DNA of 64,000 bases, from the sequence record OR352954; one strand, 5' to 3'. Source of the stretch: Escherichia phage AV124. Position numbers and translations under genes: made by a program. Numbering within the stretch: the stretch's first letter is position 1; each line of letters opens with the position of its first letter. Below the pieces are notes generated by a model. It did not search any database. It was not told the DNA's origin and saw nothing but the letters and a program-made list of their open reading frames with translations. Below, one piece after another: positions 1 through 64,000 of this stretch.

Positions 1-473
1 CCTTCTCATATGACCCTGAGACAGGTTTGTTTACTTGTATCAATCCTCTCGCTCGTCGTCATTTTGGTAAGGTTGCAGGCACAAAAAGGAAAGATGGGTA
101 TATACGCCTCGGTGTTAAGGTAAGCGGCAAGCTGAAAATGTTTCTCGCGCATAGGGTTGCCTGGGCTTTTTATCACGGTGTGTGGCCTGATGGCCTTATT
201 GACCATAAAGACTGGGACAGACAAAATAATAAAATAGACAATCTCAGGGTTGTTGACAAAAGCACAAATAATTATTATTATTCCCCTTGGAAAGGGAAGT
301 CACAGACAGGTTACAGGGGTGTTAGGATAGATAAAAGGAGAAATCCTCCCAGATATCAAGCTATTTTCTGCGACACTCATCTTGGGATGTTCTCTACAGC
401 AGAAGAGGCATATGCTTGCTATCAAAAGTATGTTATGAAGACACAGGAGATTATCGCAGATGCTGAAATATAA
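1..473 (+). CDS. HNH homing endonuclease with AP2-like C-terminal motif; 5' partial (start lies upstream of window)
   Basis: Reading frame open from window edge; 'HRVAWAFYHG...DHKDWDRQNNKIDNLR' HNH-type motif, 'GYRGV' AP2-like motif. Confidence 0.55.
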   Translation, partial: FSYDPETGLFTCINPLARRHFGKVAGTKRKDGYIRLGVKVSGKLKMFLAHRVAWAFYHGVWPDGLIDHKDWDRQNNKIDNLRVVDKSTNNYYYSPWKGKSQTGYRGVRIDKRRNPPRYQAIFCDTHLGMFSTAEEAYACYQKYVMKTQEIIADAEI

Positions 474-951
474 AGTTGGTGATTTGATTAAAGCTATTCA
501 AGATGGTGAAGTAAATGTTTTTGGTCATGGTTGTAATTGCTTTGTGACTATGGGTAGCGGGATCGCCCCGTTGATCAAAGAAGCATTCCCTAAGATGTAC
601 GCTGCCGACCTGAAAACTGAGAAGGGCGACAAGACCAAGCTGGGAACCTGTACAATGGCCTTTTTGAATGATGGGTCTCTCGTAGGATTTAATCTGTACT
701 CACAGTACGGTTATAATCGCCGCAAACAGGGTCTCAGGGACCTTGACTACAATGCCCTGTATGATTCAATGGTTGAAATGAAAAAGCTCTTACAGAGCTA
801 TACAGACGGCCCTATGGACACCTATCGAATCGGGTTCCCTAAACTAGGTGCTGGGCTTGCAGGGGGTGACTGGAATGTCATCGAAGCAATGATCAAATCA
901 ATCTTCTTTGATTGTGATGTAACTGTGTACATTCTGCCGGAGAAAAAGTGA
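460..951 (+). CDS. macro-domain (ADP-ribose binding/processing) protein
   Basis: 'GDLIKAIQDGEVNVFGHGCNCFVTMGSGIA' and 'IGFPKLGAGLAGG' resemble macro-domain Gly-rich loops (cf. YmdB/MacroD). Confidence 0.55.
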   Translation: MLKYKVGDLIKAIQDGEVNVFGHGCNCFVTMGSGIAPLIKEAFPKMYAADLKTEKGDKTKLGTCTMAFLNDGSLVGFNLYSQYGYNRRKQGLRDLDYNALYDSMVEMKKLLQSYTDGPMDTYRIGFPKLGAGLAGGDWNVIEAMIKSIFFDCDVTVYILPEKK

Positions 952-1120
952 TGACAGAAAAGAAAAACCTACACCCTGATACTGCATATGATCGTATTGT
1001 TGCGGCAATTCGTGCAATCGACCCGAAATTGGTAGACGCCCTTGACAGAAAGGATGCCCTCAACGATATTAATGATGCTTGCTATGAAGTTTTATGGCAA
1101 GATTGGATGGGGGATGATGA

Positions 1121-1330
1121 ATGATTGAACTTAAAGACGGCATGGTGGCCCACACCAAGAAGATCGACCTTCACGTTGGTAACACAGTGTTTACATACAA
1201 TGCACCACGAGGAAAGAGCTTTGTTGTTCTTCTACTTGGCGTAGAGAAGCCGGATGGTCAAGGAGAAGGTATTCAGATTGACGAATGGCTGAATAGTCGT
1301 GGCTGGAAGCTGGAGGGTCCTGATGAGTAA
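1121..1330 (+). CDS. hypothetical protein
   Basis: ORF track; start overlaps upstream gene. Confidence 0.3.
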   Translation: MIELKDGMVAHTKKIDLHVGNTVFTYNAPRGKSFVVLLLGVEKPDGQGEGIQIDEWLNSRGWKLEGPDE

Positions 1331-1541
1331 ATCGGTTTTTGTCATCTATGACACTGTTGACAAATGCCTCTGGAACCACAAAGCCAAGATTGGGTGGATT
1401 AGTTCCGGCGCGGCGAAGAACGCCTGGAATCTTGCCCACGCAACCTGGAGTGGGAAGCAGTATTTTGATGACCAGCAAAGATATGTAGTTCTTGAGCTTT
1501 CTGGCGGACACGTTAGTAAATTATTTGAGGAGAATAAATGA
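1323..1541 (+). CDS. hypothetical protein
   Basis: ORF with ATG at 1323 overlapping upstream stop (ATGAGTAA); translationally coupled small early gene. Confidence 0.3.
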   Translation: MSKSVFVIYDTVDKCLWNHKAKIGWISSGAAKNAWNLAHATWSGKQYFDDQQRYVVLELSGGHVSKLFEENK

Positions 1542-1894
1542 CCATGAATGAATCTGTAGATTCTGCAACCACCCCAATGATCGGTGGTAAGATTTACGCT
1601 GGCGTTATCATCAACGCCCGTCCGTTTGTGGAGGTATGGCCCCGTTGTATTTGTGGTTATCTGGCTGGCAAGGATCATCACAACCGAGGGTTTGATAATG
1701 GCCCTATTCGTACCTCCACGGTGCAAAGCCTGCTGCTGGAGAATGGTAAGCTATTCGCCATCACACTGAATAGCGCTTATCGCCTAGAATCTGTAGATCT
1801 GGCAGCTTTTCTTAATTGTCCTGGGTGGTTCGATGACCTTGATAATTTGATCACTCAGGCTGTAGCTCCTAAAAAGGGGGTGTCCATTGACTAA
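1538..1894 (+). CDS. hypothetical protein
   Basis: ORF track, 118 aa, start overlaps upstream stop. Confidence 0.4.
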   Translation: MTMNESVDSATTPMIGGKIYAGVIINARPFVEVWPRCICGYLAGKDHHNRGFDNGPIRTSTVQSLLLENGKLFAITLNSAYRLESVDLAAFLNCPGWFDDLDNLITQAVAPKKGVSID

Positions 1895-2930
1895 ACCAAT
1901 TAAATACCCAAGCACCGCACAGTTCCGTCAGGTTATCCGCACCATGCATGATAAACTGACGTTCGACGGTCTTGATGAAGAAGGCAATATCAAGCGTAAG
2001 GTTTTGCCACCGGACGCATACTTGATCCCGTACATTGGTACGGTTAAGCTCCACGGCACAAATGGTAGCGTGGTATTCCACTCTGAGGATGAAGTTGTCT
2101 TCCAGTCCAAAGAGCGTGTCGTTACTGTAGGTGACGATAACAATGGCTTCGCGGCTTTCATGTCTCGAAAAGACACCTCAGAGCTGCTTTCCCAGGTTAA
2201 ATACCTGTGTGAAGTCAATGAAGTTGAGTTCCAGTTCCCGGTTGAAATTGCTGGTGAATGGGCTGGTCGCGGCATTCAGAAAGGTGTTGCCATCACTGAA
2301 GTAGAGCCATTCTTTGCTATCTTCCGTGTGGCTGTAGGCCGGGATGAGGCGACGGATACCCTCAACTGGCTACCACCAACGTTCCAGTTTGGAATGGGAT
2401 TGCCGGATGCTCGTATCTACAGTATCCTTGACTTCGGTTACTGGATGGCTAATATCCCATTCAATGAGCCAGAACTTGTCCAGAATGACTTGGCAGAACT
2501 GACTCGTGAAGTGGAAAACAAATGCCCGGCAGGTAAGTTCTTTGGCGTAGAAGGTATCGGTGAAGGCATTGTCTGGTCTCCAAAAGATCCTGAGCTTTCT
2601 AAAATCTCTGGTCTGTGGTTTAAAGTCAAGGGTGATAAACATTCTGTATCCAAAGTTAAGACCCTGGCAGCGATCGACCCAGAACGCCTCGCAAGTATGC
2701 GTGAGTTCGTTGAGTACGCTGTGACGGAAGCACGTCTTGAGCAGGGTGTTAGCGAAGTCGGTCTTGACCAGACTAAGATTGGTGAATTCATTGGATGGAT
2801 TAACCGAGACATCAACAAGGAAGAGGGTGATGTTCTGGAAGCCAGCTCCATGACCATGAAAGATGTTGGTAAGTTTATCAGCAACAAAGCTCGTGCATGG
2901 TACATGACTCGTCTGAGTGAGGAGGGCTAA
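1887..2930 (+). CDS. ATP-dependent RNA ligase, Rnl2-like
   Basis: Nucleotidyltransferase motif I 'VKLHGTN' (cf. T4 Rnl2 KIHGTN), 'EGIVWSP' and 'FKVKG' downstream motifs; N-terminus 'KPIKYPS'; TTG start after GGGGG SD. Confidence 0.7.
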   Translation: MTKPIKYPSTAQFRQVIRTMHDKLTFDGLDEEGNIKRKVLPPDAYLIPYIGTVKLHGTNGSVVFHSEDEVVFQSKERVVTVGDDNNGFAAFMSRKDTSELLSQVKYLCEVNEVEFQFPVEIAGEWAGRGIQKGVAITEVEPFFAIFRVAVGRDEATDTLNWLPPTFQFGMGLPDARIYSILDFGYWMANIPFNEPELVQNDLAELTREVENKCPAGKFFGVEGIGEGIVWSPKDPELSKISGLWFKVKGDKHSVSKVKTLAAIDPERLASMREFVEYAVTEARLEQGVSEVGLDQTKIGEFIGWINRDINKEEGDVLEASSMTMKDVGKFISNKARAWYMTRLSEEG

Positions 2931-3739: not shown

Positions 3740-4270
3740 TTGAAATTGAAAAATATGATTTTGGCAACCGCCTGTATCCTTTCTCTGACTACCACACCTG
3801 TCTTAGCCAAAGAAAGTGTAAAGAAGCCCAAAGTTATCCATCTTTGTAAGAAGGATGACACAGCGGTAAACATTTTAGCCTGCAACATGTACAAAGAAGC
3901 TCGTGGAGAGAGTGATTCCGGGTTAATGTCGATCGCATTCGTAACTTTGAATCGTAAGGATAACGATAAGTACCCTGGAACAGTAAAGAAGATCGTCTAC
4001 CAGCCCGGACAATTCTCCTGGACATCTTCAGGAACAACGTTTAAAGTCTATGAAAAGGATCGCTGGGAGAAGGCACAAGAGTTTGCAAAAGTTCTGATCA
4101 AGATTCATAAACAAAACAGGGTCGTCTACGATGCTCTGGACATAACACATGGAGCAACCCACTACCATTCACGAAAAGTAAAACCCTACTGGACAAAGGC
4201 CATGCTACGCACAGTCAGGATCGATAACCATATCTATTATAAAGAGAAAGAAGATTCTCAGGGGGCATGA
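3740..4270 (+). CDS. secreted SleB-like cell wall hydrolase (signal peptide)
   Basis: N-terminal 'MKLKNMILATACILSLTTTPVLA' signal peptide; 'YKEARGESDSG...VTLNRKD...IVYQPGQFSW' resembles Hydrolase_2/SleB catalytic domain. Confidence 0.55.
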   Translation: MKLKNMILATACILSLTTTPVLAKESVKKPKVIHLCKKDDTAVNILACNMYKEARGESDSGLMSIAFVTLNRKDNDKYPGTVKKIVYQPGQFSWTSSGTTFKVYEKDRWEKAQEFAKVLIKIHKQNRVVYDALDITHGATHYHSRKVKPYWTKAMLRTVRIDNHIYYKEKEDSQGA

Positions 4271-4439: not shown

Positions 4440-6431
4440 ATGATAATCGAGCGTAATGAGAAGAAGGTAGAAGTTAGTACCAACGTCAAACGCTATCAAG
4501 CTGGTATCGCGATCAATGCTGAAACTTTCAGTATCTTGATCGATGGTATTTATGAGGACAAGATCCTTGCTGCCTGTCGTGAACCCCTGTTCAATGCGGT
4601 AGATGCACACACAGAAGCCGGATGCCGGGACAAACCGATTATCATCCACTCCCCAACGGACTTGGAACCGTGGTATTCTGTCAAGGATGGTGGTATTGGG
4701 ATGGACTTTGACATGGTTACCCAGACCTTCATGATGCTGGGATCGTCCACTAAACGTGAATCCAACGATCTGATCGGTGCGAAAGGTATTGGTTCCAAGG
4801 CCCCGTTCACCGTTACGGACATGTTCAGTGTCATCTCTATCAAAGATGGTACTAAAACTGTGTACTCTGTTCATAAAGACCAAGGTATTCCTGAGGTTGT
4901 TCCTCTTCACGAGTCTAAAACCATAGAAGAAAATGGTGTTGAAATCAAATTCAACGTTGATCCGACAGAGACTGAGAAATACCGCCGTGCAATTATTAGT
5001 TGCCTGCGTTATGCTAAGTTCCCTTACGAGATCAATGACCCGTTTGTGACTTCATCTATTCGAGACCGTACCTACCCGGTGCAGTATACGTTCAAAGATG
5101 AAGAATCTGGTTGGATGCTGGAAATGTATTCGTCGGTATCTAACAACGCCGATAGCGTTGTGGTTATGGGACAACAGCCATACAAGTCAAAGTTTCTGAG
5201 CAATAACCCTGAATGGCCTTTAATGATGGTTTCCATTCCGATCGGGGATTGTGACGTAAACCCAGGACGTGAATGGACTATCGAGGGTAAGAATGACCGT
5301 GGATTCGAAGAGCGTCTTAAGGCATTTGTCCAGACTGCCCTTGATCGTCGTGGTGAAGAAATCTATCATGAACTCCGTAAGCTTTCAAATCTGGCTGATG
5401 TATTAGCTTATATGAAGCGGGTAGGTGGTTGGTTTGCCACTAAATATGGTGCAAAGTACATCGCAGAACTCTTCGCAGAGCACACTAACTCTTTGAATAT
5501 TAAAGAGTGCGTGACTTATAATGGTCATGGTGAAAAGCGGAGGATGGATAAGACATACTCTTACACAGACATGATGAACGGCTTCCACCTTGTCTACAAC
5601 GATATTAATAAACTTGTTCGTAGCCGTTGTAATCAGTTATTTGATGTAACAGGCAAGGCCGTCTATCTGACGGACAATCTTGGTGTGGCACAAATGTGTG
5701 ATAATCCATTCTTTGCGGGAATGGTCCATAAGCTGTCGGATTTGGAAAAGCGTCCAGCATCGAAATCGGATAAAAAGTATGGCGGATATAGCCTGTATGA
5801 ACCAGGGCATCCAGTATGGATCATTGAGCAGAGTGGAGCTATTAGGAAAACACGTATCTCCCGTGCGGAATTTGATGATATCAAATATGCCATGGTCTAT
5901 TCTGGTGGTCAGGCACGAGGGACTTGTGACCTTGGGTCTACGGCGTACCTTTCTAACCGTCATCAACCGGAGACCTTCTTGTCAGATCTTGGTATTGATG
6001 ATAAATTATACATCGTACCTTTAAACCGAGTGAGTTGGCTGGATGATGATGTTAGGATGATTACACAGGACGACCTTTATAAGGTTGCAAGTTCAAACCT
6101 GTTGGATTATCATCTTAGTCAGTTAACCAGACAGCGTGAGTATCGCTCTCTCTTGGACGACTTAAAGGGAATAGGTGTAGAGGTTGTCAAAGATCCTGAA
6201 TACAAGCAAAAGGTTAATATGGCTAACACTCTTTACAATATTAAAGGTTATTATAGTGCAGAAAGAACTGCGAAGAGAATCATCAATGGACGTATTCGTG
6301 TTGGGAAAAGTCTGATTAACAAGGTAAAAGAGCGTTACCCGTTGCTGAAACACGTCCCGATGCAACATTTTAACTCACCAGAGGTGGTTGAGTACCGTAA
6401 ATTTATTGATAGCAAAGGAGAAAATAAATGA
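4440..6431 (+). CDS. rIIA: rIIA-like protein (GHKL ATPase N-terminal domain)
   Basis: GHKL-type boxes 'FNAVDAH' and 'GIGMD...GAKGIGSKAPF'; 663 aa; immediately upstream of rIIB-like gene with ATGA overlap. Confidence 0.65.
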   Translation: MIIERNEKKVEVSTNVKRYQAGIAINAETFSILIDGIYEDKILAACREPLFNAVDAHTEAGCRDKPIIIHSPTDLEPWYSVKDGGIGMDFDMVTQTFMMLGSSTKRESNDLIGAKGIGSKAPFTVTDMFSVISIKDGTKTVYSVHKDQGIPEVVPLHESKTIEENGVEIKFNVDPTETEKYRRAIISCLRYAKFPYEINDPFVTSSIRDRTYPVQYTFKDEESGWMLEMYSSVSNNADSVVVMGQQPYKSKFLSNNPEWPLMMVSIPIGDCDVNPGREWTIEGKNDRGFEERLKAFVQTALDRRGEEIYHELRKLSNLADVLAYMKRVGGWFATKYGAKYIAELFAEHTNSLNIKECVTYNGHGEKRRMDKTYSYTDMMNGFHLVYNDINKLVRSRCNQLFDVTGKAVYLTDNLGVAQMCDNPFFAGMVHKLSDLEKRPASKSDKKYGGYSLYEPGHPVWIIEQSGAIRKTRISRAEFDDIKYAMVYSGGQARGTCDLGSTAYLSNRHQPETFLSDLGIDDKLYIVPLNRVSWLDDDVRMITQDDLYKVASSNLLDYHLSQLTRQREYRSLLDDLKGIGVEVVKDPEYKQKVNMANTLYNIKGYYSAERTAKRIINGRIRVGKSLINKVKERYPLLKHVPMQHFNSPEVVEYRKFIDSKGENK

Positions 6432-7663
6432 GCAATCTTTTTAAATCCCGTGCAGATGCTCGTGTTTGTGCTGCAAGTCGTGGTATGAAAGTTGTGGACC
6501 GTGGTGTATCTCCGGCGGTCCTGGCAGAGGGGCGTTGGATGGTTGTCCCCAAAGACAGTATTGGTGCTTCCCCGGAAAAGACGATTTCCTTCGATATGGA
6601 AACTTACCCTGCGCCAACTGCTTCTATGTTCTTTGCGAGTCGGGGAGAAGCCCGAGCATTCTCTAAGACTGTACAGAATGCGAAGATTATCGATCATGCA
6701 AAGACAACAGCAGGACATGACAAAGAGGAGGGGGTTGTCAAGGACCTTGGCAAGCGTGGTAAGCGCTGGGAAGTGGTGTTCGTAGTTTCTGATGTAGAAG
6801 TGAGCATTACTGTTCCTCAGCTTCCAGAACCTACACCTGTGCCTATTAAGATTTCGGTTGTTGATGACACGAAAGCTGATCCCATTGTCATCATGACACC
6901 AGGCAACGTTTCCATCACACTTCCCGATGGAACTATTCATACTCTGGGCAGTAACAGCGAAATCTTTAACGACGTTGGTATGTTACTGTTAAACAACAAG
7001 ATCGACGAAGCCGTAGCTCTTATTGAGGCGGGAATCGCTGCAAAAGCTGAGGTGGCAATCGATCTTGGACCGGATATGAAGCTACTCGACGGTGTTCTAT
7101 ACTGGCACGGCATCAAACAAGAAAGCGGTATTGCTCGCCGTATTGTTTCGGATATCGAGACCGGGAAGTTCGATAACCGTTATGTTGAGTTCATGCGTAA
7201 ACTGATGCTCAACCCTTCTTACAAATCGGTTGAAATGCTGTACGACTTCCTGGAGCATAACAAGTTTGAGATCCTGGAGAATGGCAACATCTTGGCCTAC
7301 AAGGGGCTTAAACGCACTGAGAATGGTCCTCGTGACTGGTTCACAGGCTTGGTCCCTAACTGGGCTAACACCACCGTCACGATGCCAAGAAACATGGTTG
7401 AAGATGACCCAACCAAAGCTTGTAGTCAAGGGCTGCACATCGCTTCCAAGGAATATGCCCGCGATTATGGCAATGTGGTTGAGGTTTCTGTTGACCCGGC
7501 AGACATTGTTAGCGTACCATATAACTACAATAACAAGAAATGCCGATGCTGCCGCTATGAAGTATTGACAGGAAAAGAAAAGCCAGCAGGTGCTCCTGAT
7601 GTTATTGTTGTGGGTGTAAGGGGTGCTATCCTGGACGAAATTTATCTCGATAAGGAGGATTAA
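6428..7663 (+). CDS. rIIB: rIIB-like protein
   Basis: Position directly after rIIA with start/stop overlap; C-terminal 'CSQGLHIASKEYARDYG...VDPADIVSVPYNYN' resembles rIIB family as I recall it. Confidence 0.55.
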   Translation: MSNLFKSRADARVCAASRGMKVVDRGVSPAVLAEGRWMVVPKDSIGASPEKTISFDMETYPAPTASMFFASRGEARAFSKTVQNAKIIDHAKTTAGHDKEEGVVKDLGKRGKRWEVVFVVSDVEVSITVPQLPEPTPVPIKISVVDDTKADPIVIMTPGNVSITLPDGTIHTLGSNSEIFNDVGMLLLNNKIDEAVALIEAGIAAKAEVAIDLGPDMKLLDGVLYWHGIKQESGIARRIVSDIETGKFDNRYVEFMRKLMLNPSYKSVEMLYDFLEHNKFEILENGNILAYKGLKRTENGPRDWFTGLVPNWANTTVTMPRNMVEDDPTKACSQGLHIASKEYARDYGNVVEVSVDPADIVSVPYNYNNKKCRCCRYEVLTGKEKPAGAPDVIVVGVRGAILDEIYLDKED

Positions 7664-8970
7664 TGTCTGATTTTGGAGTGGGAACGGAAGAGGCCTTAGG
7701 TGCTATCATTGAAGGCAAAAACGTTTTCATTACGGGGCCGGGGGGCAGTGGCAAGAGCCATCTGATCAAAACAATCCAATCCCTGTATCCAAGTTCAACA
7801 TTAACAGTGGCCCCGACAGGGGTCGCTTCACTTAATGTTGATGGAATGACAACTCATCGAGCTTTCGGGTTATCAATGGGGATAGCCACAGAAGATGATG
7901 GTAAGACAGTAAAAACTAAACCTAAAAAACTTTTAAAAAGCAAATCTCTTGAGCGTATCATTATTGATGAAATATCTATGGTCCGAGCCGACAAATTGTG
8001 GGAAATGGATCAGAAACTGCGTGTTGCGAGAAGGGAGCCTAAGAAAGCTTTCGGCGGTCTTCAGGTCATCATGTTTGGTGATTTCTTTCAGAACCCTCCC
8101 GTTCTGACAGAGTCTGAAGAAAACGCTTACTTTGAACTCCACAGCACAGAATTATCTTGTTTCTCAGACACTTGGGGAGAGATAAGTCCATACCCTGTGC
8201 TTCTTGACAAGATTTATCGTCAAAACAGCGTGCATTTTTCATCGCTATTGAATCATATGAGGAAAGGCGAGCGTATTGATGAAATAGTTAAATTCCTCAA
8301 CAATCAGTGCTATTCAAAGGGTGCAGCACTGAATGCGATTACCCTAACTTCAACTAATGCCGCAGCGGAGCGTATCAACAAAAAGCATTACGATCAGATA
8401 CCGGGTGAAGAGGTTATTTACAAAGCCTCCAAAACAGGAGATTTTGCCCAGCGTCCAGTTGCTGAGAGTCTACACCTCAAGGTAGGGACTCGTGTCATGA
8501 TCACCGTTAATGATCAGAATCCAGATGAAGACGGTCCTAAATTTGTCAACGGAACGAGGGGTATTATCAAGGCTCTCGGAAAATTTTCGGTAGATGTTGA
8601 GCTGGAAAATGGTAAGATCGTAGAGATCGAAAAGAATGTGTGGGAGAATGTAGAATACTTCCCAAGAAAGGTTATCAAGAATGGTAAGACTGAAGAGGAA
8701 TTGGAAAAGATTGTTGTTGGAACATACACAAACTTGCCCATTCGCCTTGGTTATGCAGTGACCATTCACAAAGCTCAAGGCTTGACTTTGCCAGAGGTTA
8801 ATATAGACTTTGGTTATGGAGCTTTTGCTCCTGGGATGGCCTATGTTGCCTTTAGCAGGGCCACTTCTACAAAAGGTTTAAGATTGTTGCGTCCGGTTAA
8901 AGAACGTGATATTATCGTAGACCAAAGAATTGTTAAATTCTACAAAGACACATTCCCAGGAAAATTTTAG
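7663..8970 (+). CDS. SF1B DNA helicase, Dda/RecD-like
   Basis: Walker A 'GPGGSGKS', 'IIIDEISM', 'VTIHKAQG', 'AYVAFSRA' motifs in Dda/RecD order. Confidence 0.75.
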   Translation: MSDFGVGTEEALGAIIEGKNVFITGPGGSGKSHLIKTIQSLYPSSTLTVAPTGVASLNVDGMTTHRAFGLSMGIATEDDGKTVKTKPKKLLKSKSLERIIIDEISMVRADKLWEMDQKLRVARREPKKAFGGLQVIMFGDFFQNPPVLTESEENAYFELHSTELSCFSDTWGEISPYPVLLDKIYRQNSVHFSSLLNHMRKGERIDEIVKFLNNQCYSKGAALNAITLTSTNAAAERINKKHYDQIPGEEVIYKASKTGDFAQRPVAESLHLKVGTRVMITVNDQNPDEDGPKFVNGTRGIIKALGKFSVDVELENGKIVEIEKNVWENVEYFPRKVIKNGKTEEELEKIVVGTYTNLPIRLGYAVTIHKAQGLTLPEVNIDFGYGAFAPGMAYVAFSRATSTKGLRLLRPVKERDIIVDQRIVKFYKDTFPGKF

Positions 8971-10884: not shown

Positions 10885-11102
10885 TGAAACACGAAGTTAA
10901 AGTCGTTGAATTCGAATTCGGTAAACACAGAGGTCCAGACTATGTGGCTAAAGTGTTGGCAGAACATCTTGATGAAGGATATACTATCGTAGGGCAATCT
11001 GAAAGTGCTAGATATCTGACCTACACTCTAGTTAAAATTATCCCAATTTCCATGACGGGTACGGTAACAAATGCCGATCACCAAGGGGTCAGTTTCCACT
11101 AA
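10884..11102 (+). CDS. hypothetical protein
   Basis: ATG 10884 (MKHEVKV...) within track ORF 10857..11102. Confidence 0.3.
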   Translation: MKHEVKVVEFEFGKHRGPDYVAKVLAEHLDEGYTIVGQSESARYLTYTLVKIIPISMTGTVTNADHQGVSFH

Positions 11103-11112
11103 GGGAGGCCGT

Positions 11113-17275: not shown

Positions 17276-17419
17276 GACGATGGTAAAATCCACATCCAGT
17301 ATTGCCCTGTTGGTGAAATGGTCGTAAGATGTGTAGAGAAGGCCGCTCGTATCATGGGCAGTCCTGTACATATCACAGGGGCATATCTTACGGGCGCCAA
17401 TTGGGCGCAATGTCATTGA
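17021..17419 (+). CDS. DNA polymerase C-terminal segment (motif C region to C-terminal His)
   Basis: 'IQYCPVGEMVVRCVEKAARIM...ANWAQCH*' matches T7 DNAP C-terminus '...IQVGC..EEIAQVV...NWAICH*'; first ~85 codons lack polymerase similarity. Confidence 0.6.
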   Translation: MATRNGVGEINDLAKLLDEYQLQVPKKYLKKWEFDTLEEATAFVKEWEAKGRVFDGHEWRKAVKDDNGDKVKDAEGNTVYEGIFGDDGKIHIQYCPVGEMVVRCVEKAARIMGSPVHITGAYLTGANWAQCH

Positions 17420-52584: not shown

Positions 52585-53058
52585 TTAGATGATACCTGCA
52601 AGGCCAGCCAGACCGAAGCCTGTAGCGTACAGAGTATCTGGGCTTAACCATGCGTCCAGGATTCCGATTTCCCAGTCCATTTGGCCTACTTCAGTACCGT
52701 AGGTCAGGTCAGGCTGTTTCTGAATCCAACCAACTGTGCTCAGACCCATACCCTGGGAGCCTTCAAGAAGGACAGGGAAGAAAATCAGACCAGTGATGGA
52801 AGCTTGTTTCTGCCAGTTAGCCAAGTACCCGTTCCATACCGAAGTGTTCTGTAGAGAGACAGTCAGGACACCAGATTGGTTACGAGACAGCGCTGCTGAC
52901 AGTTCACCATCAACCCCCATGTGGGGGATGATGTTATCTTCGTTGCGAGCAACGACGATCTTGGTATCCGCTGCGAACCCAGTGACGCGCTGAGTCATCA
53001 TATAGAGACGCGCTTTCTGTGGGTCGTAGGCATACGGGGTTAAAATTCTTGTATCCAT
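52585..53058 (-). CDS. tail tube protein
   Basis: 157 aa, directly downstream of sheath-size gene and upstream of chaperone/TMP. Confidence 0.5.
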   Translation of the reverse strand: MDTRILTPYAYDPQKARLYMMTQRVTGFAADTKIVVARNEDNIIPHMGVDGELSAALSRNQSGVLTVSLQNTSVWNGYLANWQKQASITGLIFFPVLLEGSQGMGLSTVGWIQKQPDLTYGTEVGQMDWEIGILDAWLSPDTLYATGFGLAGLAGII

Positions 53059-53061: not shown

Positions 53062-54558
53062 TTACACTCCTGCTGTTACTTGTCCGCTGGAAGAAGTAGA
53101 CCCGGTTTTGTCTAGCAGAACAGAGATGCGAATCTTGACGAAATGCAAGGAACTGTTGTAGACTAACTCTACCTTAACATTGTTAAGGGTACGAGATGCA
53201 AGGTCGTTAGATGGGATGCTTGCACGAAGCGGAATTGTTACAACCGGATCGTAGAACACCTTGTTGACGGAATCATATCCGGTCAAAATAGACCCATTAG
53301 TGATACCGACGTTCAGAGGACTGTTCATCAGGACTGCTTTTAGGTTCGGCATATCATCATCGCTCATCTTCATGGAAAGGCCAAGATTAGAACGGCGAGA
53401 CATATATGCGAAGATACTCTCTTCACTTCTGAATTTCAGCCAGTGTCCGAAACGAACTACGTCAACATACTGACCGGAAGCACACTTACCTTCCCAGAAT
53501 GCACCAACACCATTAATCATACGATAGAAGTTCAGGTTCTGTCCCCAAATTGTTGGGCGATCGGAAGAACTGAGTGTTGGAGCAACTACGCCAGGCATTG
53601 TCTTCAGGTGAATAGAATCACCATATGAAGGATCATTAGAAGCCATAGCCCCTATGATTCCTCCTTCGGAGAATGCACTATCCGCAAGAGGGTCGTACAT
53701 ACCAATACTGGTATCATATTGGAGAGCTTTTAGCTGATTAGCGATAGAATTGCCATCAACAACCAAGGATAGTTGGTCAGCTGTTGAATATACATGCAGC
53801 TTATAATTAGCAGATGCATAAGCGGCTGCACCAAGAATCGCAGATGCAATATGTTGCTCTGTACTCAGGAAATACCAGTTGTTATTTGCGGTTTCAATCT
53901 CCGGGAGAATTCCGCTAACTGTTTCCGTAGAGGTATTTGTAAGTGTACAATTACCATAATCGATACCGATGCTGAATGGCTCGCCGATAACATCAGAAGA
54001 TGTTGCCATAATGCCCTGGTCAGATTCGGTTGTAACCACCTCGTCATTGTTAGTCGCCAGCAGAGAGCCGTCGCCTTTCGGGGTGATTGTTACAACACCA
54101 GCGGTAGCTACTGCACCGACAATTACGTTAAGCGTGGTATCAGAGTTGATTGCAGATGCTAGGGCTGTTGCAATACTGTCTGGCGTAGATGCGGCAGTAA
54201 CAGGAATAACGATGCTTTTAGTATATGCGCCTGCTGCAACGTTGAAACTTACCGGGTTATTAGGATCTACGTTTGTCTGCCCTGTGAAATTGATAACTGT
54301 TGATTCCCATGCTTGTCTTCCGATCATAAGCGCTTGGGGGCGGAAAGTCCCAGCAAAGGCTTTTGTCGCAAAAGTATACGCAGGGGAACCTACAGCGAAA
54401 CCATCCGCAGCGAGTTCATCCAGATCTGTATATGTACGTACTCGTTCTGGGAAAACGTTGTGAATTGCGATAAATAGAGGGGTTTCAAACCCTACGGTGT
54501 CGATTGGTTGTGTCCCGAGAACAACCGTTACGTCAACAACCTTATCATTATAAGCCAT
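53062..54558 (-). CDS. tail sheath protein
   Basis: 498 aa; sheath-tube-chaperone-TMP order typical of contractile tails. Confidence 0.5.
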   Translation of the reverse strand: MAYNDKVVDVTVVLGTQPIDTVGFETPLFIAIHNVFPERVRTYTDLDELAADGFAVGSPAYTFATKAFAGTFRPQALMIGRQAWESTVINFTGQTNVDPNNPVSFNVAAGAYTKSIVIPVTAASTPDSIATALASAINSDTTLNVIVGAVATAGVVTITPKGDGSLLATNNDEVVTTESDQGIMATSSDVIGEPFSIGIDYGNCTLTNTSTETVSGILPEIETANNNWYFLSTEQHIASAILGAAAYASANYKLHVYSTADQLSLVVDGNSIANQLKALQYDTSIGMYDPLADSAFSEGGIIGAMASNDPSYGDSIHLKTMPGVVAPTLSSSDRPTIWGQNLNFYRMINGVGAFWEGKCASGQYVDVVRFGHWLKFRSEESIFAYMSRRSNLGLSMKMSDDDMPNLKAVLMNSPLNVGITNGSILTGYDSVNKVFYDPVVTIPLRASIPSNDLASRTLNNVKVELVYNSSLHFVKIRISVLLDKTGSTSSSGQVTAGV

Positions 54559-57167: not shown

Positions 57168-57464
57168 TTACGCCATAATGCCAGCAGCCTTCAGCTTGGA
57201 AAGAAGGGCATTAAAGTCGGTAACCAGTCCAGCTACGTCAGTCGCCACCGTGTTGGCCTGTGTTTCTGCCATTTTAACACCGCCAACCACAGAAGTGGTT
57301 GCAGCCACGGGAGCAAAAGTGGTAGGCTTGCCAGTAATGTCGGCCCATGCCACAGCTCCACCGCCTGCGACAGCGATTACATCAGCGAAGGAAATAACTC
57401 CGCCAGTTGCAAGGTCAATCAGTTTTGTACCGTAGACCAGTCCAGCTACACCAGATGTTGCCAT
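57168..57464 (-). CDS. virion protein paralogous to N-terminus of the collagen-like protein
   Basis: 'MATSGVAGLVYGTKLIDLATGG' resembles '[23 protein letters not shown]' of upstream gene. Confidence 0.4.
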   Translation of the reverse strand: MATSGVAGLVYGTKLIDLATGGVISFADVIAVAGGGAVAWADITGKPTTFAPVAATTSVVGGVKMAETQANTVATDVAGLVTDFNALLSKLKAAGIMA

Positions 57465-57476: not shown

Positions 57477-58616
57477 TTAGATTGCGGGTAATTGTGTTGC
57501 AGATTCAGGTACAACCTGTTCTGCGATTAACAAAATAGTTGAAGGGATGAATGTTGATCCAACAGCGGAAATCAAACACTGAGTCCCGTTTGTCGCCATA
57601 TTGCCATTAACATCCACGCTGAACATATTGAGTAAGTTAATTGTATCCTGTTGAGATGTACCTTGTACACGAGCTGCCGTTAGTCTGTTACCGACTGAAG
57701 GTGGGAAATTTAATTCTATCGCACGGTTACTTGAACTACTCGACCAAGTTCCAATCAAATTCAGCTTAAAGTAAACGCTAAAGTTTGAGTTGTATACAAT
57801 CATCTTATCGACGGTGGTATTGAAGAGCGGAGATAAACTACCGGAATGGGGTATATTCTTCAGAAGAGTGATAAGATTTGTTTCTGGACCTATCGTTACA
57901 TCTGTAAGATTTGTCCAAGTAACTTCCACCTTTCTTCTTATACGAGATTCCGCAGGGGTTCCTGGCTCACCATCATCACCTTTTGGTCCCTCTGGACCCT
58001 GAGGTCCAGATGGGCCTTGTGGACCAGCAGGCCCTGTAGGCCCGACCGGGCCTGTAGCACCTTGTGCTGCCATTAATGCCCAGTGTGTGGCAGAAGCCGG
58101 GTCTCCAGTAGGAGGCACTCCAGTTGACGTCAGTGTGTTGAAATACAATGCCCCGTTGTAAACAGCAGCATCGTTCTCAACATATGTTGTCGTTGAGGAA
58201 TAGTTACCTTTAAACTCTAGACCCGTAGCCCCAGAAGGTCCCGTAGGTCCCTGTGGCCCCGTTGGGCCTTGAGGCCCTTGAGGGCCAGTTGGTCCTGCTG
58301 GTCCTTCTTCACCTTGAGGCCCTTCCGGGCCTTGAACTCCACGAGGTCCCTGCGGGCCTTGGGTTCCAGGTATTCCTTGGATTCCCTGAGGACCTGTAGC
58401 CCCATCCTGCACATTTATAATCGTTTTTACAGCATCTTGGTCAGCTGCTTTTAATATCTCTTTACCAATATCAGACGCATCGGTGATAGATTCAACAGTA
58501 ATCTCACCTGACCCGCCATTCATGATATCATCAAAATCGATCTTATTACCAGTCTTCTGACTAACAAGTGTTCTTCCATAAACAACACCAGCTACGCCAG
58601 CCGAAGCTATTGACAT
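57477..58616 (-). CDS. collagen-like repeat virion protein (head or tail fibre)
   Basis: Two Gly-X-Y tracts '[19 protein letters not shown]...' and '[34 protein letters not shown]'. Confidence 0.6.
57957..58403 (-). repeat. coding Gly-X-Y (collagen triple-helix type) tandem repeats
   Basis: Periodic GGNCCN nonamers on plus strand; corresponds to aa ~72-132 and ~186-220 of the 379-aa protein. Confidence 0.7.
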
Positions 58617-59284: not shown

Positions 59285-60298
59285 TTACGCGAAAGTACCA
59301 GTCAGTTTAACAACCAGCTCTGGGCGGCAGTTAACTGTCAGGAAGGAAGTTTCAGACTCTACCTTCTCTTCACGCAGGTAAGCAGAAGATTTGTACCACA
59401 GGTACAGTTCTTGTGCCGGAGTATTCGCTTCACGAACATCATCTGCTGGCGCATAGTGGATCTGGAACATGTTGTCGATACCGCGCGGCAGCATGTAAGC
59501 TTCACCGTCCGGGATGTAACCGGAGATATCTTCGATGTACAGAACGTTTTTGTGAACGAAGGAACGGTTGTTAGCGTTTTCCTGACCTTCACCAAGACGA
59601 CGACGCAGCGGCTCTTGAGTAGAGCTGTAGTATTGGTATGCGTTCATGATCAGCGGGTGAGCGATGAAAGCAGAGAACCATTTACGAGAAGCCAGGACTA
59701 CGATGTCGTAGTTGTTTCCGTTGTCACCAGCGTTGTCGATGATGAATGCACGACCATCGTTTTCGAGCAGGTCAGACGGGTCAACTGCAACGTCAGTGAA
59801 ATCTACGTTAACAACTTCCTGGGTAACACCCCATTCGGTGAAGTAGTTATACTGAGCGGTCGGGTCCTGCGGTGCCCAAGATTTACCCATGATTGCCTGA
59901 AGCATTGCTTTTTCTTTAAGCTGTTCATGAGAAATACGGATACGACGAACAACACGTTCAACTACGTCCTGTACAGATTTAGGAGCATCCGCAGTGAAAT
60001 ATTTACGGAAGTTCTGTACGTCTGCCGGAGTGATCTGACGATCCAGCGGGAAGAACGGGATGTTGAAGTTTTTCAGTTGGGCCTTTTCAGTACCAACGTA
60101 GTTACGTTCACCCTGACGACGACGAGCTGGGAAGTCGGTTACAACTTCGTCAACACGCTCGATCTGGGCGATAGTAGAGACACCGTGATAAGCCTCGAAA
60201 AGGTTCATGTTGGTGATCATACGGTACTGACGAGGTACGATTTCCAGAGTTGCGCCTAGATCGACGATCTGGAAATCATTAGTGCGTACTACTGCCAT
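59285..60298 (-). CDS. major capsid protein (lambda gpE-like family suspected)
   Basis: 337 aa; follows scaffold and decoration genes; followed by strong terminator; pattern resembles Phage_cap_E proteins. Confidence 0.6.
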   Translation of the reverse strand: MAVVRTNDFQIVDLGATLEIVPRQYRMITNMNLFEAYHGVSTIAQIERVDEVVTDFPARRRQGERNYVGTEKAQLKNFNIPFFPLDRQITPADVQNFRKYFTADAPKSVQDVVERVVRRIRISHEQLKEKAMLQAIMGKSWAPQDPTAQYNYFTEWGVTQEVVNVDFTDVAVDPSDLLENDGRAFIIDNAGDNGNNYDIVVLASRKWFSAFIAHPLIMNAYQYYSSTQEPLRRRLGEGQENANNRSFVHKNVLYIEDISGYIPDGEAYMLPRGIDNMFQIHYAPADDVREANTPAQELYLWYKSSAYLREEKVESETSFLTVNCRPELVVKLTGTFA

Positions 60299-60318
60299 TA
60301 TTTTCTCCTTGGTGTAGA

Positions 60319-60738
60319 TTAGATAGACGTTACTGGGATCTCAACGGAGCCGTCGTAATATTTATCAGTGATCTTCAGACCTTTGGCCTCAAGAGCAGCG
60401 ATAGCAGCAGCGTTGATAGCAGTAGTACCGTCAGCAAAGAACAGTTTGGATTTGTTCAGGGTCAGACCACGAACAGCCACAACGAAGTTGTATTTAGTAC
60501 CAACAACAAACTCACGAGGAGCATCGTATGCAGGAACCAAATCGCGGTCGGTGATTACACCAAATGCGCTTGCAGCGTCGGAAGTTGCAGCCAGAGTACC
60601 ATCAGACTTGACGATCATCCCAGCCTTCAGCCCTGCGGAATAAGTGATTTCCATTTCCAGGAAGCTGTAGCCCTGATCAGAAGAATCAACTTTACCCAGG
60701 ACGATGTCAGAGTAGTACCCTTGAATCGGATTAGCCAT
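60319..60738 (-). CDS. head decoration protein (gpD-like)
   Basis: 139 aa immediately upstream of capsid gene; 'GTLAATSDAASAFGVI' resembles gpD-type core. Confidence 0.4.
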   Translation of the reverse strand: MANPIQGYYSDIVLGKVDSSDQGYSFLEMEITYSAGLKAGMIVKSDGTLAATSDAASAFGVITDRDLVPAYDAPREFVVGTKYNFVVAVRGLTLNKSKLFFADGTTAINAAAIAALEAKGLKITDKYYDGSVEIPVTSI

Positions 60739-60757
60739 TTATATTATCTCCTCGATA

Positions 60758-61753
60758 TTAGGCAGTTTTGCGAGCGCGAGCAGCTTCTAGAGCTTTCTGC
60801 ACGTTTGCTTTAAGAACGTCTTCGGCAGATTTAGCCAGGTCATCAGTCACAACCTCTTGGTTGATGCCATTTTCCTGAGTGCCGAACTCTTTCTTCACAG
60901 TTTCAACTTCTGTTTCCAGTTCGCTAATACGAGCTTGGGCTTTTTCCAGAAGAGCCACCACTGGGGCGTTAGCTTTTTCAATGATGAAGTCAGCAAGAGA
61001 TTCATGATCTTCTTCAGCGGCAAAAGTAAAACCTTTGGCTTTTGTAAGAGCATTTTTCTTTTCTGCTTCAACAGCAGCCTTGATAATCAGTTCTGCTTGG
61101 GCATTTTTTGCATTAGCTTCTTCAAGCTTTTTAACCAGGTCCAGGTACTCCTGGGATTTGGTTACATCAACAGTATCGGACACAGAGGTCTCCTTGTTTT
61201 CAATTGTATTTTGAACAGGTACGTCTGGTTTAGCAGCGTCCTTGATGACCTCAGTCTCCTGAGTGTCTTTGGCATCAAAAATGACACCGTGCTCTGCAAC
61301 ACCCTTCTCAAACATCTGTTGGAGTTTGATTAGTTCATATTGCTTCACAAGGTCCAGCTCTTCACCTGCATTTGCAGCTTTGGCGATAGAGATGGACTCC
61401 ATCTTCGATTCTAACCATTCTTGGTTATCATCATTCCAACGTTGCAGCCACTCATCATCAGGATTTTCAGCAGCAGCGTTTTCCAGTTCTGTTTCGAAGC
61501 CCAAAAGTTTGGCAAGGAGTTCAGCATCACTACTCCACATATCGAAGAAGCGACGAAGGAATTCTTCAAAGCTCATATCGACAGTAACTTGGCGAAGTGC
61601 CTTAACCACGTCTTTGGTAATCTGTTCAGGTGCAAGGTCAGACTTCATCAGAAGACTAACCGGACGCATATTTGCAGAATAACCTTGACTCTTGTGGCAG
61701 AGTGCGATACCCTTATCCTTAATAGTTTTGGCCTTGACTACGAGTGCGCTCAT
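60758..61753 (-). CDS. scaffolding protein
   Basis: 331 aa, Ala/Glu/Lys-rich predicted coiled coil; between portal-proximal gene and capsid. Confidence 0.5.
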   Translation of the reverse strand: MSALVVKAKTIKDKGIALCHKSQGYSANMRPVSLLMKSDLAPEQITKDVVKALRQVTVDMSFEEFLRRFFDMWSSDAELLAKLLGFETELENAAAENPDDEWLQRWNDDNQEWLESKMESISIAKAANAGEELDLVKQYELIKLQQMFEKGVAEHGVIFDAKDTQETEVIKDAAKPDVPVQNTIENKETSVSDTVDVTKSQEYLDLVKKLEEANAKNAQAELIIKAAVEAEKKNALTKAKGFTFAAEEDHESLADFIIEKANAPVVALLEKAQARISELETEVETVKKEFGTQENGINQEVVTDDLAKSAEDVLKANVQKALEAARARKTA

Positions 61754-62379
61754 TCGTTTTCCTCGGCAATCTCAATCCCGAAATCGAGTCCGGTGATTTC
61801 ACCAGTCTCCTTGTCTGTGTAGCCAGAGCATTGAATGCTCAGTCCACCGACAGCGTTGGCCTTTTTCAAGAGCCACAGTTCAGGATCATTGTATTTAACC
61901 TTAGCTACCCAGGTGCCAGCTTTAATGATTTGCTCGCTACCGATAACCACGACATCGAACTCTTCTTGAATCCAAGTCTTCTCGATGGTAAAGGCATCAG
62001 TCTCGACAATGTGGAACAGGTTCTCTTTAACAAGACCAGCCGCTCGCGCAGCATCGAAACTTTCCTTACCTTTGACGATTGTCTCTGGAGACATCCATTC
62101 ACCGTGGGCATCCCTAGTGTTTGGTTCATAAATGACTTCGTAAGAAATCATTTGTTCTCCAGCATCTTTGACAACAGATACAGGCTTGGCATTCTTTTGA
62201 ATTGCTGTCTTCTTCAGCCCTACATGGAGTACATCTTTAGATGCTTTCTCAATAGCGGCTTCAGGAGATAGGCCTGAATCAATCAGGCCATTTGCGAGAA
62301 CCAGTACCTTGCTCTTCTGAATGAGAGACAGATTCGATACTGATGCAGGAAGGTCAGCAATACTTGAGTATTTCATCAT
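61750..62379 (-). CDS. head morphogenesis protein (possible prohead protease)
   Basis: Position between portal and scaffold; no catalytic motif recognised. Confidence 0.3.
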   Translation of the reverse strand: MMKYSSIADLPASVSNLSLIQKSKVLVLANGLIDSGLSPEAAIEKASKDVLHVGLKKTAIQKNAKPVSVVKDAGEQMISYEVIYEPNTRDAHGEWMSPETIVKGKESFDAARAAGLVKENLFHIVETDAFTIEKTWIQEEFDVVVIGSEQIIKAGTWVAKVKYNDPELWLLKKANAVGGLSIQCSGYTDKETGEITGLDFGIEIAEENE

Positions 62380-62443
62380 TTTCCCCGTTGATAGTTATTT
62401 TAACACCGTTTATTTTCTTTTGCAAGTTATTTCAGTGAGTTGC

Positions 62444-63991
62444 TTAGTTATCCAAGTTAGAGACAGAATTATCTCTTACTTTAGACGTCCCATTACCAGA
62501 AGTACCTTGCTTCATTCCATCACCGGAGCGACTGGTATCTTCCCCAAGGATCTTGAGTAGTTCCTCTTGAGATGTGTTTTCAGGAATCTCTTCATCAAAC
62601 CCACCAACCTCAAGGATCTTATTGATAACTGTAGGTGTCTTCGGCAGATAACCAACAGCACCAATTCTCTGAACAAATTTGGAGAAGCTTTCCATATCAA
62701 CTTCCTGGATAGCTCCAGGCTTAAGTCTCGGCATGTCTTCATCAGACAAACGGATATTATTAAGAGCGAGTAGTTGAGGAATCAAGTTCTTGTTGAATGA
62801 TTCACAAATAATATCGATATCTCGTTGAACAAAATGCCCGTGGATTGTTTGTTTTGATTCCGACAGGTTGTAAGACCCTTGACCATCATTCCCTAAGTTG
62901 ATGAACCCCGCACCAAATCTGTCCAAGATCGCCTTCTTACGCTCTTGTATTAGATCCTTGGTACTATACTGTTTACCAACCCCATCGATTCCCTTAAGGG
63001 TCATCTTATACTGCTCACCGCCCTTATCATTCATATCTGAAGGTAAGATGAAGTAAGATTGTTCACCTGAGTGTGCGTTTGCAGCGTCAGCCATCAGACC
63101 ACGAACCATATCTGCTTCAGGTGATCTCGGGTCCATAGACGCCTTATTCAGAATTGAAGAAGGGATCTTTAATTCAATGATACCACCGAGGTCCTTAGAT
63201 GCCCCTATAACTTCAAGGTTTTCGATCAGGATTTTTTCACGGAATGCACGGTAACAACCAACAAGAGGTGATACACCTGTAGGGTTTGATTCTGTCCCAC
63301 CAAGAGACATTATCATCAACTTATTCACAGGGATGAATTTCTCATCCGCACTTCCTGACAGATTTGTGACGAGACTCATAGCCCCAGCAATCTGGTTCAT
63401 CCCGTTCTGAAAATTAGCAAAAGCCAGTGCGCTTTGATAAACACCCGTAATTGTCCTTCCATCATCGCTGAAGACAAAAGGTTTTGTACGAGAGAGGCTT
63501 GACTGAGGACGGAAAGCAATTTTGTCGATCGTCATATAGCCTGCGTACTTAGATGGCGCGGATTCTGTTCTGTAGACCTTTTCGAATACAGAGAAACCAT
63601 ACTCGTTAAATGTCGCAGCACTTCTCGCCACATCGCGAAGCGTCTGTTGGTTAGCAAGATTCTTCAGAGCATACTCGACGAAATCTGCCGCTTTTTTAGA
63701 CTCTTCACTATCTCGGTTGAAAAGAATTTTAAAATCATTGAAAGCCTTGGTGACAAAAACATATTTCGTATCCAGCGCTGTGGCAACAGTATGGTCTTGC
63801 TTCATGGAATCCACTGTTGCGAGGAACATAGGCCAGCGGAGTTCTTCAACCTTCATAATCTCAGATTCAGCACGAATCTGAGACAATGCTCCACTACCAA
63901 GTTCTCCAGTACGGACACGACTCACAGCAAGGTTTTCATTCCCTGCTTTTGCCACCGCATTCTTTCTTTTTCTGTTTCTGCGATTTGACAC
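62444..63991 (-). CDS. portal protein (putative)
   Basis: 515 aa; first gene of the visible late block, upstream of protease/scaffold/capsid. Confidence 0.5.
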   Translation of the reverse strand: MSNRRNRKRKNAVAKAGNENLAVSRVRTGELGSGALSQIRAESEIMKVEELRWPMFLATVDSMKQDHTVATALDTKYVFVTKAFNDFKILFNRDSEESKKAADFVEYALKNLANQQTLRDVARSAATFNEYGFSVFEKVYRTESAPSKYAGYMTIDKIAFRPQSSLSRTKPFVFSDDGRTITGVYQSALAFANFQNGMNQIAGAMSLVTNLSGSADEKFIPVNKLMIMSLGGTESNPTGVSPLVGCYRAFREKILIENLEVIGASKDLGGIIELKIPSSILNKASMDPRSPEADMVRGLMADAANAHSGEQSYFILPSDMNDKGGEQYKMTLKGIDGVGKQYSTKDLIQERKKAILDRFGAGFINLGNDGQGSYNLSESKQTIHGHFVQRDIDIICESFNKNLIPQLLALNNIRLSDEDMPRLKPGAIQEVDMESFSKFVQRIGAVGYLPKTPTVINKILEVGGFDEEIPENTSQEELLKILGEDTSRSGDGMKQGTSGNGTSKVRDNSVSNLDN

Positions 63992-64000
63992 GAGTCATCC

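Follow-up and report, generated by a model that had tools for sequence, protein, structure and literature searches.

The window considered here is the whole stretch of 64,000 nucleotides taken from Escherichia phage AV124 (sequence record OR352954). Its open reading frames (ORFs) switch strand at a hairpin at 29145-29170, where a + strand block of early and middle genes meets a − strand block of late genes. The + strand block (1-29141) carries the early and middle functions (RNA ligase, endolysin, rII, helicase, methyltransferase, primase-helicase, polymerase and NAD salvage). The late structural operon runs towards it on the − strand and meets it at a probable bidirectional terminator. Its genes lead from the tail fibres and a cluster of baseplate and tailspike genes, through the hub and tape measure to the tube and sheath, then by way of the neck and head fibres to the genes for capsid, decoration, scaffold, protease and portal. 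A sequence-only reading of this DNA had seen in it a mosaic of T7-like, T4-like and lambda-like genes with a contractile tail and an unusual number of receptor-binding proteins (RBPs), and had taken this mixture as the sign of a lineage poorly represented among classical model phages. The genes concerned are listed below, with identities to the Mydovirus phage KB57 and to phage rV5, a Vequintavirus and the type of the subfamily Vequintavirinae.

4440..6431, + strand: rIIA (phrog_612, 4e-133; HATPase_c_3; 95% KB57_001, 39% rV5 gp001)
6428..7663, + strand: rIIB (phrog_609, 1.4e-63; 99% KB57, 35% rV5)
7663..8970, + strand: Pif1-family SF1B helicase (PF05970, 3e-29; best PDB match bacterial Pif1, 6e-66)
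11071..11805, + strand: DNA methyltransferase (phrog_757, 9e-81)
11802..13877, + strand: T7 gp4-like primase-helicase, 691 aa (phrog_239, 1.6e-163; DnaB_C, 6.8e-13)
14006..16300 and 17072..17419, + strand: two exons of a family A, T7 gp5-like DNA polymerase (PDB matches; tblastn against KB57)
29145..29170, both strands: probable bidirectional terminator hairpin (perfect 11-bp stem between an A run and a T run)
33564..35695, − strand: baseplate proteins DUF2612 and Baseplate_J (PF11041, PF04865; 99% KB57, 58-61% rV5)
46286..47976, − strand: baseplate central spike and hub (PF18352; annotation of KB57_055/056; 57-59% rV5)
49287..51698, − strand: tape measure protein (PF20155, 5.5e-15)
52585..53058, − strand: tail tube (PF11681; 80% identical to rV5 gp52)
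53062..54558, − strand: tail sheath (phrog_205, 1.8e-110)
59285..60298, − strand: major capsid protein (PF03864, lambda gpE family, 5.3e-40)
60319..60738, − strand: head decoration protein (phrog_2680)
60758..61753, − strand: scaffold candidate
61750..62379, − strand: XkdF-type protease (PF14550, XkdF/S78_2, 2.8e-14)
62444..63991, − strand: Mu-type portal (PF06074)

Relatives of the window

The window was queried as three thirds by megablast against a database of about 50,700 phage records. Each third gave more than 100 matches, the best of which (at least 30) all came from phages of Klebsiella, together with Proteus and Raoultella, at 90-99% identity and covering 70-91% of each third. Matched records that carry a taxonomy line read Caudoviricetes; Vequintavirinae; Mydovirus, a genus with six International Committee on Taxonomy of Viruses (ICTV) species in a subfamily of seven genera. 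The blastn blocks between the window and KB57 form a single collinear chain, as do those with K45PH128C2, and position 1 of KB57 corresponds to window position 4440. More broadly, the window is collinear with more than 30 sequenced Klebsiella phages of Mydovirus, at 93-96% nucleotide identity. For the group of KB57 (NC_028659), K45PH128C2 (OY978796), K54_rec1-6, BIS47, KpS8, Seu621 and Proteus phage Mydo, this identity extends over 79-83% of its length, with core proteins 94-100% identical. At the protein level, 38 of the 48 tested window proteins are at least 90% identical to KB57, most core proteins reaching 94-100%. For K45PH128C2 (OY978796.1) only the DNA was used, the feature table of this record being shifted by about 59 kb relative to its own sequence. 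For example, its rIIA gene is annotated at 87716-89707 and the matching DNA lies near 28370; given the shifted feature table, product names displayed under BLAST matches to the OY-series records are misleading.

The composition of the window is uniform, with a GC content of 42-51% and no island-like module; the sign of the GC skew reverses near 30 kb, at the switch of the coding strand. No tRNA genes were found in the 64 kb. The sheath, tube and baseplate genes are those of a myovirus, and the contractile tail described in the sequence-only reading is indeed present, with its hub and spike.

ICTV similarity criteria are 70% for a genus and 95% for a species. Over the 64-kb window, the product of aligned fraction and identity amounts to 74% for KB57 (78.7% aligned at 94.0% identity) and to 78% for K45PH128C2 (82.8% at 94.1%), both above the genus value. 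The best single-genome product, 78% over this window, is below the species value, and AV124 is therefore probably a separate species. We are all but certain that AV124 is a virulent Klebsiella myovirus belonging to Mydovirus, a genus of the rV5-like phages (subfamily Vequintavirinae), and that the window represents about 45% of its genome. AV124 is a new isolate and probably a species-level member of its own. From its relatives (about 142-150 kb), the complete genome would measure about 145 kb, and Klebsiella would likewise be the host.

Some observations weigh against this placement. The window covers 64 kb of about 145 kb, so that an assignment to genus and species by whole-genome similarity is an extrapolation, and the host is deduced from relatives only. 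Moreover, about 17-21% of the window has no nucleotide alignment to any single relative. These parts correspond to RBP modules, small accessory ORFs, homing endonucleases and a head fibre.

Whether the genes, taken together, point to a novel or poorly sampled lineage of phages has to be judged against these relatives. Such a reading draws on the fact that T4, T7 and lambda are each unlike the window overall, and that several ORFs, namely those for proteins of 266, 411 and 676 aa, have no Pfam or PHROG assignment. However, dozens of near-identical genomes are available in a six-species ICTV genus, and the gene order is that of KB57 and rV5. The BASEL study, moreover, describes the Vequintavirinae as a 'highly abundant group' carrying several lateral tail-fibre sets, a 'nanosized Swiss army knife' (PMC8594841). 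We consider a novel lineage extremely improbable and rejected it on the megablast relatives, the collinearity, the product of aligned fraction and identity, and the identity of core proteins to KB57. What survives of the original suggestion is that the phage stands outside the T4, T7 and lambda groups and that rV5-like phages never served as classical models; the lineage itself is well represented. The mosaic does not signal an unusual phage either, since the genome clusters tightly, with the same content, within a well-characterized genus.

Resemblances to T7, T4 and lambda

Several of the model-phage resemblances are real at the level of protein families. For the primase-helicase, all five PDB matches are T7 gp4 (E-values from 7.5e-27 to 2.5e-22). 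A TOPRIM domain is indicated at aa 142-274 by sub-threshold Pfam matches (Toprim_2, 0.0038; Toprim_4, 0.05; Toprim, 0.11). The polymerase matches T7 gp5 structures at 8e-16 to 7e-17, versus about 1e-6 to 5e-8 for Taq and Klenow, and conserves the HDE residues of motif C. Its N-terminal 580 aa gave no Pfam match, with nothing usable even at E≤10. T7 gp4 and gp5 are thus the closest solved structures, although the similarity is remote and partial. A T7 gene 4/5-like replisome, as the sequence-only reading had it, holds for the DnaB_C helicase and the family A polymerase, with support for TOPRIM remaining under the threshold. Membership of a T7-like lineage is another matter: no RNA polymerase family was found among the window proteins tested, including the T7-type single-subunit enzyme, and the rest of the window genome and its contractile tail are unrelated to the T7-like phages (Autographiviridae).

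Turning to T4, the rIIA and rIIB ORFs are adjacent and overlap, and both genes are present as had been read. The neighbouring helicase belongs to the Pif1 family and not to a Dda-like group. T4 Dda is absent from its PDB matches at E≤0.01, and the designation 'Dda-like' exists only as a PHROG label (phrog_325).

The head module (59285..63991) is 94-100% identical to KB57. Its gene order (portal, protease, scaffold candidate, decoration, capsid) is the B-C-Nu3-D-E order of lambda, and the capsid protein is of the gpE family with the decoration gene immediately upstream. Beyond this the parallel fails: the portal is of the Mu type rather than the lambda type, the protease is of the XkdF type rather than gpC (S49), and no gpD-family relationship was seen for the decoration protein, which has no Pfam match even at E≤10. 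The lambda likeness of this capsid set, as judged from its sequence, is limited to the family of the capsid protein and the gene order.

The same combination is found in rV5. Its genome carries, in the same order, rIIA/rIIB, the Pif1 helicase, the methyltransferase, the primase-helicase and the T7-like polymerase, and the genes for tail fibre, baseplate, tape measure, tube and sheath recur there as the same block; amino acid identity to the window is 35-80%. At the position equivalent to the hairpin, rV5 has annotated terminators on both strands, and the hairpin of the window is probably a bidirectional intrinsic terminator. rV5 and its phi92-like relatives share with the window a multivalent fibre apparatus, whereas the fibre genes themselves are different and much larger in rV5. 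The model-phage resemblances were already noticed in the GenBank notes of rV5 ('similar to phage T7 DNA polymerase', 'Roseophage SIO1 primase/helicase', 'RB69 rIIB', 'KVP40 rIIA', 'Felix O1'). The rV5 paper of 2013 lists a GP4d-helicase protein, a PIF1 helicase and five tail-fibre-like proteins, in addition to capsid, decoration and portal proteins, tube and sheath (PMC3606486). Because rV5 has the same gene set in the same order, we regard the combination as ancestral and vertically inherited in Vequintavirinae. It is the standard, long-described content of rV5-like phages and is already known.

One might instead suppose that T7-like, T4-like and lambda-like modules were joined in the window by recent recombination or by a chimeric assembly, given that the best solved-structure relatives of single proteins come from different model phages. 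The similarities to these model phages are remote, however (E-values of 1e-16 to 1e-27, over partial lengths), and the same joined arrangement exists in rV5 at 35-80% amino acid identity, so that the combination predates the subfamily. In addition, the GC content is even and every junction is collinear with independent complete genomes. On these grounds we rejected a recent chimera or assembly artefact, to which we attach next to no probability. The resemblances to T7, T4 and lambda are best read as remote, family-level similarities, fixed across the subfamily and vertically inherited. Recent exchange is confined to the C-terminal modules of three tailspikes, to homing-endonuclease insertions and to the head-fibre locus, three kinds of variation that are already known for rV5-like phages.

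The interrupted polymerase gene

In the list of ORFs, the DNA polymerase appears as two ORFs (14006-16306 and 17021-17419) with an HNH ORF between them. Comparison with the uninterrupted polymerase of KB57 resolves the region as follows.

14006..16300, + strand: polymerase exon 1, codons 1-765 (99.2% by tblastn to aa 1-765 of the KB57 polymerase, which has no intron)
16301..17071, + strand: group I intron of 771 nt (exact insertion relative to KB57; Rfam RF00028)
16429..16920, + strand: HNH homing-endonuclease ORF of 163 aa inside the intron (PF13392, 4e-10)
17072..17419, + strand: polymerase exon 2, codons 766-880 (spliced product compared with KB57)
17438..18073, + strand: free-standing HNH homing endonuclease (NUMOD4 and HNH_3), directly after the polymerase stop codon

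The intron lies between the His and Asp codons of the catalytic motif C (HDE). A search with Rfam model RF00028 in E-value mode recovers the group I core in full at 16291-17023 (39.3 bits, E 4.8e-8). U16300, paired with a G in P1, immediately precedes the 5' splice site, and the last base of the intron is G17071. Joining the exons gives a protein of 880 aa, identical to the KB57 polymerase at 871 of the 880 positions, and the junction IYYH|DEYQ aligns with the HDE of motif C in T7 gp5. At the identical codon of its polymerase gene, rV5 has an intron of 276 nt without an ORF (compared stretch 26786-27061), which scores 64.7 bits, above the Rfam threshold. The two introns are 77-81% identical and differ by compensatory changes in stems P2 (GUGAG/CUCAC in the window, AUAGA/UCUAU in rV5) and P3 (CUCC/GGAG and CCUC/GAGG, respectively). 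The intron of the window would thus self-splice and restore the 880-aa polymerase.

Against this stands a score of 39.3 bits, below the RF00028 gathering score of 50; splicing in AV124 is a prediction from the sequence. A scan of the whole window with Rfam at the gathering threshold returned nothing, and the intron was seen only in E-value mode on the local region; its rV5 homologue then served to validate it. The score falls short because an HNH ORF of about 490 nt is inserted in a peripheral loop.

Could the polymerase be truly split, with polypeptides of 766 and 132 aa that associate without RNA splicing, as in NrdA of Aeh1? An in-frame ATG at 17021 does open a 132-aa ORF covering exon 2, HNH insertions that do not splice are known (one insertion in CB7, and Aeh1), and the sub-threshold Rfam score could be read in the same sense. 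Yet the group I core is complete, with the U.G pair at the 5' splice site and the terminal G, and in rV5 the homologous intron, at the same codon, scores above the Rfam threshold. Stems P2 and P3 show compensatory changes. Splicing rebuilds the HDE motif exactly, whereas a split protein would part the His from Asp-Glu. A Shine-Dalgarno-like AGAGGA precedes the HNH ORF, and no Shine-Dalgarno sequence precedes the apparent ATG of exon 2. Finally, the analogous polymerase introns of the Pectobacterium phage CB7 splice (PMC7344957). A split gene seems improbable to us, and we rejected it on the group I core, the rV5 homologue, the exact restoration of HDE and the missing Shine-Dalgarno sequence before exon 2; a self-splicing intron is the preferred interpretation.

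Interrupted polymerase genes are a known kind of feature in this subfamily. In CB7, also a member of Vequintavirinae, HNH introns interrupt the polymerase gene, a free-standing HNH gene comes after it, and the two polymerase introns were shown by RT-PCR to be spliced (PMC7344957). These introns resemble that of the window in bearing the HNH ORF in a peripheral loop and in being inserted in a conserved catalytic motif; the rV5 intron differs in having no endonuclease ORF. Among Mydovirus isolates the number of polymerase introns varies from none (KB57 and Seu621) to two (K54_rec4, where the second lies at codon 654/655; compared stretch ~16615-17328), and the window has one, plus the free-standing HNH gene. 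The latter is absent from KB57, and its product shares 33% identity with the HNH protein of the intron. In several GenBank records, as in the output of ORF callers, the exons figure as distinct 'DNA polymerase' genes.

Tailspikes, head fibres and accessory genes

Between 29174 and 46273, 7-9 ORFs form a receptor-binding cluster. The fibre and spike genes of this region and their partners are given here together with the two head-fibre genes located further along the late operon.

29174..30934, − strand: long tail-fibre protein, 586 aa (phrog_4549, 6e-209; 98% KB57_041)
32029..32529, − strand: tail-fibre assembly chaperone (annotation of KB57_045/046)
32508..33554, − strand: tail-fibre protein, 348 aa (phrog_4465, 3e-138; annotation of KB57_045/046)
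35806..36720, − strand: fibre with intramolecular chaperone (Peptidase_S74), 304 aa (PF13884, 1.8e-7; phrog_23437)
36701..37501, − strand: 266-aa partner of the 852-aa tailspike, in a two-gene cassette (36701..40072)
37514..40072, − strand: chimeric tailspike, 852 aa (PF18668, TSP1/gp66 N-terminal, 5e-16; PF03629, SASA, 2e-13)
40235..41965, − strand: chimeric tailspike, 576 aa (phrog_6518; Mydovirus anchor and siphovirus-type C-terminal module)
42002..43645, − strand: tailspike with GDSL/SGNH esterase domain, 547 aa (PF13472, 1.6e-11; phrog_18703, 6e-228)
44284..45519, − strand: putative lectin-like distal RBP, 411 aa (weak matches to Photorhabdus PLL beta-propeller lectin, 4e-5)
45521..46273, − strand: anchor/adaptor protein, 250 aa (only the common N-terminal anchor and a coiled region)
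57168..57464, − strand: phi29-type head fibre, 98 aa (PF11133, 5e-11)
57477..58616, − strand: 379-aa head-fibre paralogue (PF01391, collagen; PF16532, Sf6-type needle-knob, 2e-29)

The number of RBPs that had struck the sequence-only reading is high in absolute terms but normal for Mydovirus: seven ORFs for fibres or spikes occupy this locus in KB57, and eleven co-occurring RBP classes, including SGNH-hydrolase RBPs, have been described for the genus in a 2026 preprint (bioRxiv 10.64898/2026.05.12.724579). The locus is also built as in the other Mydovirus phages, with a common N-terminal anchor. Five proteins (304, 852, 576, 547 and 250 aa) share this anchor of 40-90 residues (E-values from 1e-6 to 6e-19), with the motif I-x-E-L-P...D-x-L-V-V-x-Q...T-K-K-x-T, and their sequences diverge downstream of it. 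The anchor would dock swapped C-terminal modules on the baseplate. Compared with Mydovirus relatives, the window has different C-terminal modules in the 852-, 576- and 547-aa tailspikes and a different 266-aa partner, as well as several differing small accessory ORFs; the non-aligning parts of the tailspikes are the distal portions of the genes between 36.6 and 46.3 kb. The fibre and chaperone locus (32029..33554) shows 47% identity to rV5 gp33.

Two of these modules have close relatives outside the genus. Residues 13-323 of the 852-aa spike are 68% identical to KB57_052, and residues 257-852 are 86.6% identical to a tail protein of ST16-OXA48phi5.2, a temperate-type Klebsiella phage. The 266-aa partner is 89.8% identical to the adjacent tail gene of the latter (compared stretch 1594-4380). 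Because the match continues, with the 266-aa gene, into the neighbouring gene of that phage, the two genes were exchanged as a cassette, a sign that a virulent myovirus and a prophage-type phage have traded DNA. The C-terminal module of the 852-aa spike is a predicted carbohydrate esterase of the SASA type. In the case of the 576-aa spike, the N-terminus is 53% identical to KB57_053, and residues 46-576 are 88% identical to residues 169-696 of the tailspike of Snook, a 49-kb Klebsiella siphovirus (compared stretch 3085-5175); RCIP0019 and SF_KL25 also carry DNA with about 86% nucleotide identity to this stretch. These alignments point to a module shared across morphotypes.

The remaining spikes have counterparts within the genus. 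The 547-aa spike shows 84% nucleotide identity to the Mydovirus VLCpiM5b. The genes for the 250- and 411-aa proteins are present in K45PH128C2 and absent from KB57, and the pair may represent an adaptor plus a lectin-type RBP. For the RBPs of 266, 411 and 576 aa, Pfam searches at E≤10 turned up nothing of use. The position of each fibre in the virion, the esterase activities and any host or K-type specificity are predictions.

This organization recalls the branched multi-tailspike system of CBA120 (TSP1-4). The 852-aa spike has a TSP1/gp66 N-terminal domain, and PDB matches include TSP1, TSP3 and TSP4 of CBA120. The SGNH and SASA esterase modules resemble G7C gp63.1. The window follows the phi92/CBA120/G7C type, in which several RBPs with predicted enzymatic C-terminal modules are borne on one common anchor. 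Exchange of such modules has been documented in related systems: receptor-binding domains are common to Webervirus and Mydovirus at about 90% identity (bioRxiv 10.64898/2026.05.12.724579), an experimentally evolved Mydovirus took up a spike whose source was probably a prophage (PMC12654880), and active SGNH esterase RBPs are found in Klebsiella prophages (PMC13123978).

The head-fibre locus is a further site of variation. The 98- and 379-aa proteins share an N-terminus (41% over 44 aa), and the 379-aa paralogue continues with two collagen Gly-X-Y tracts and an Sf6-type needle-knob domain. This extra paralogue distinguishes the window from most Mydovirus genomes. The gene is absent from KB57 and K45PH128C2, and the only relatives are versions about 53% identical in two Mydovirus genomes, VLCpiM5b and P8734. 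The exact protein was not found in public assemblies, nor was a close homologue found there or in the phage collection. Close to these genes, a lone + strand ORF (56695-57147) interrupts the − strand structural operon. It encodes a predicted membrane protein of 150 aa, homologous to KB57_068, and its placement is moron-like.

It is tempting, though somewhat doubtful, to see in AV124 an undescribed Mydovirus species with adsorption and surface equipment new for the genus, namely a temperate-myovirus esterase cassette, a Webervirus-like siphovirus module and a collagen/Sf6-knob head fibre. If this were true and the 379-aa fibre were displayed on the capsid, the latter could serve as an additional reversible adhesin.

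Other + strand genes complete the early and middle block.

1887..2930, + strand: RNA ligase (PF09414, 6.5e-8; 98% amino acid identity to KB57)
3740..4270, + strand: endolysin, a cell-wall hydrolase (PF07486, 1.4e-19; 94% KB57, 53% rV5 endolysin)
18406..20436, + strand: conserved protein of 676 aa with a TerD-like beta-sandwich domain (sequence and structure searches)
21968..23056, + strand: NadR-like NMN adenylyltransferase/ribosylnicotinamide kinase (CTP_transf_like and AAA_28; KB57_023 annotated alike)
24609..25424, + strand: PnuC nicotinamide mononucleotide transporter (PF04973, 5e-36)

The NAD-salvage genes (NadR-like and PnuC) stand among the early and middle genes and are conserved in Mydovirus. 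No rV5 homologue of the 676-aa protein, NadR, PnuC or the RNA ligase was found in the 88 kb fetched of its 138-kb genome. Thousands of large virulent phages have a conserved counterpart of the 676-aa protein, which in Seu621 and BIS47 bears the label 'putative DNA-directed RNA polymerase'. With this protein, searches by sequence and by structure gave the TerD-like domain only and no RNA polymerase family.

The discovery value of the gene combination itself is small, the rV5-like group being both abundant and in use already for phage therapy of Klebsiella. The consequences lie rather in annotation. A family-level resemblance to T7, T4 or lambda is no ground for assuming recent mosaicism. The two polymerase ORFs are better entered as one intron-containing gene, and the label 'putative RNA polymerase' found in some relatives lacks support. 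As for the biology of these phages, it is the tailspike modules (two predicted esterases, a siphovirus-type spike and a lectin-like protein) that would set the host range in therapeutic use.

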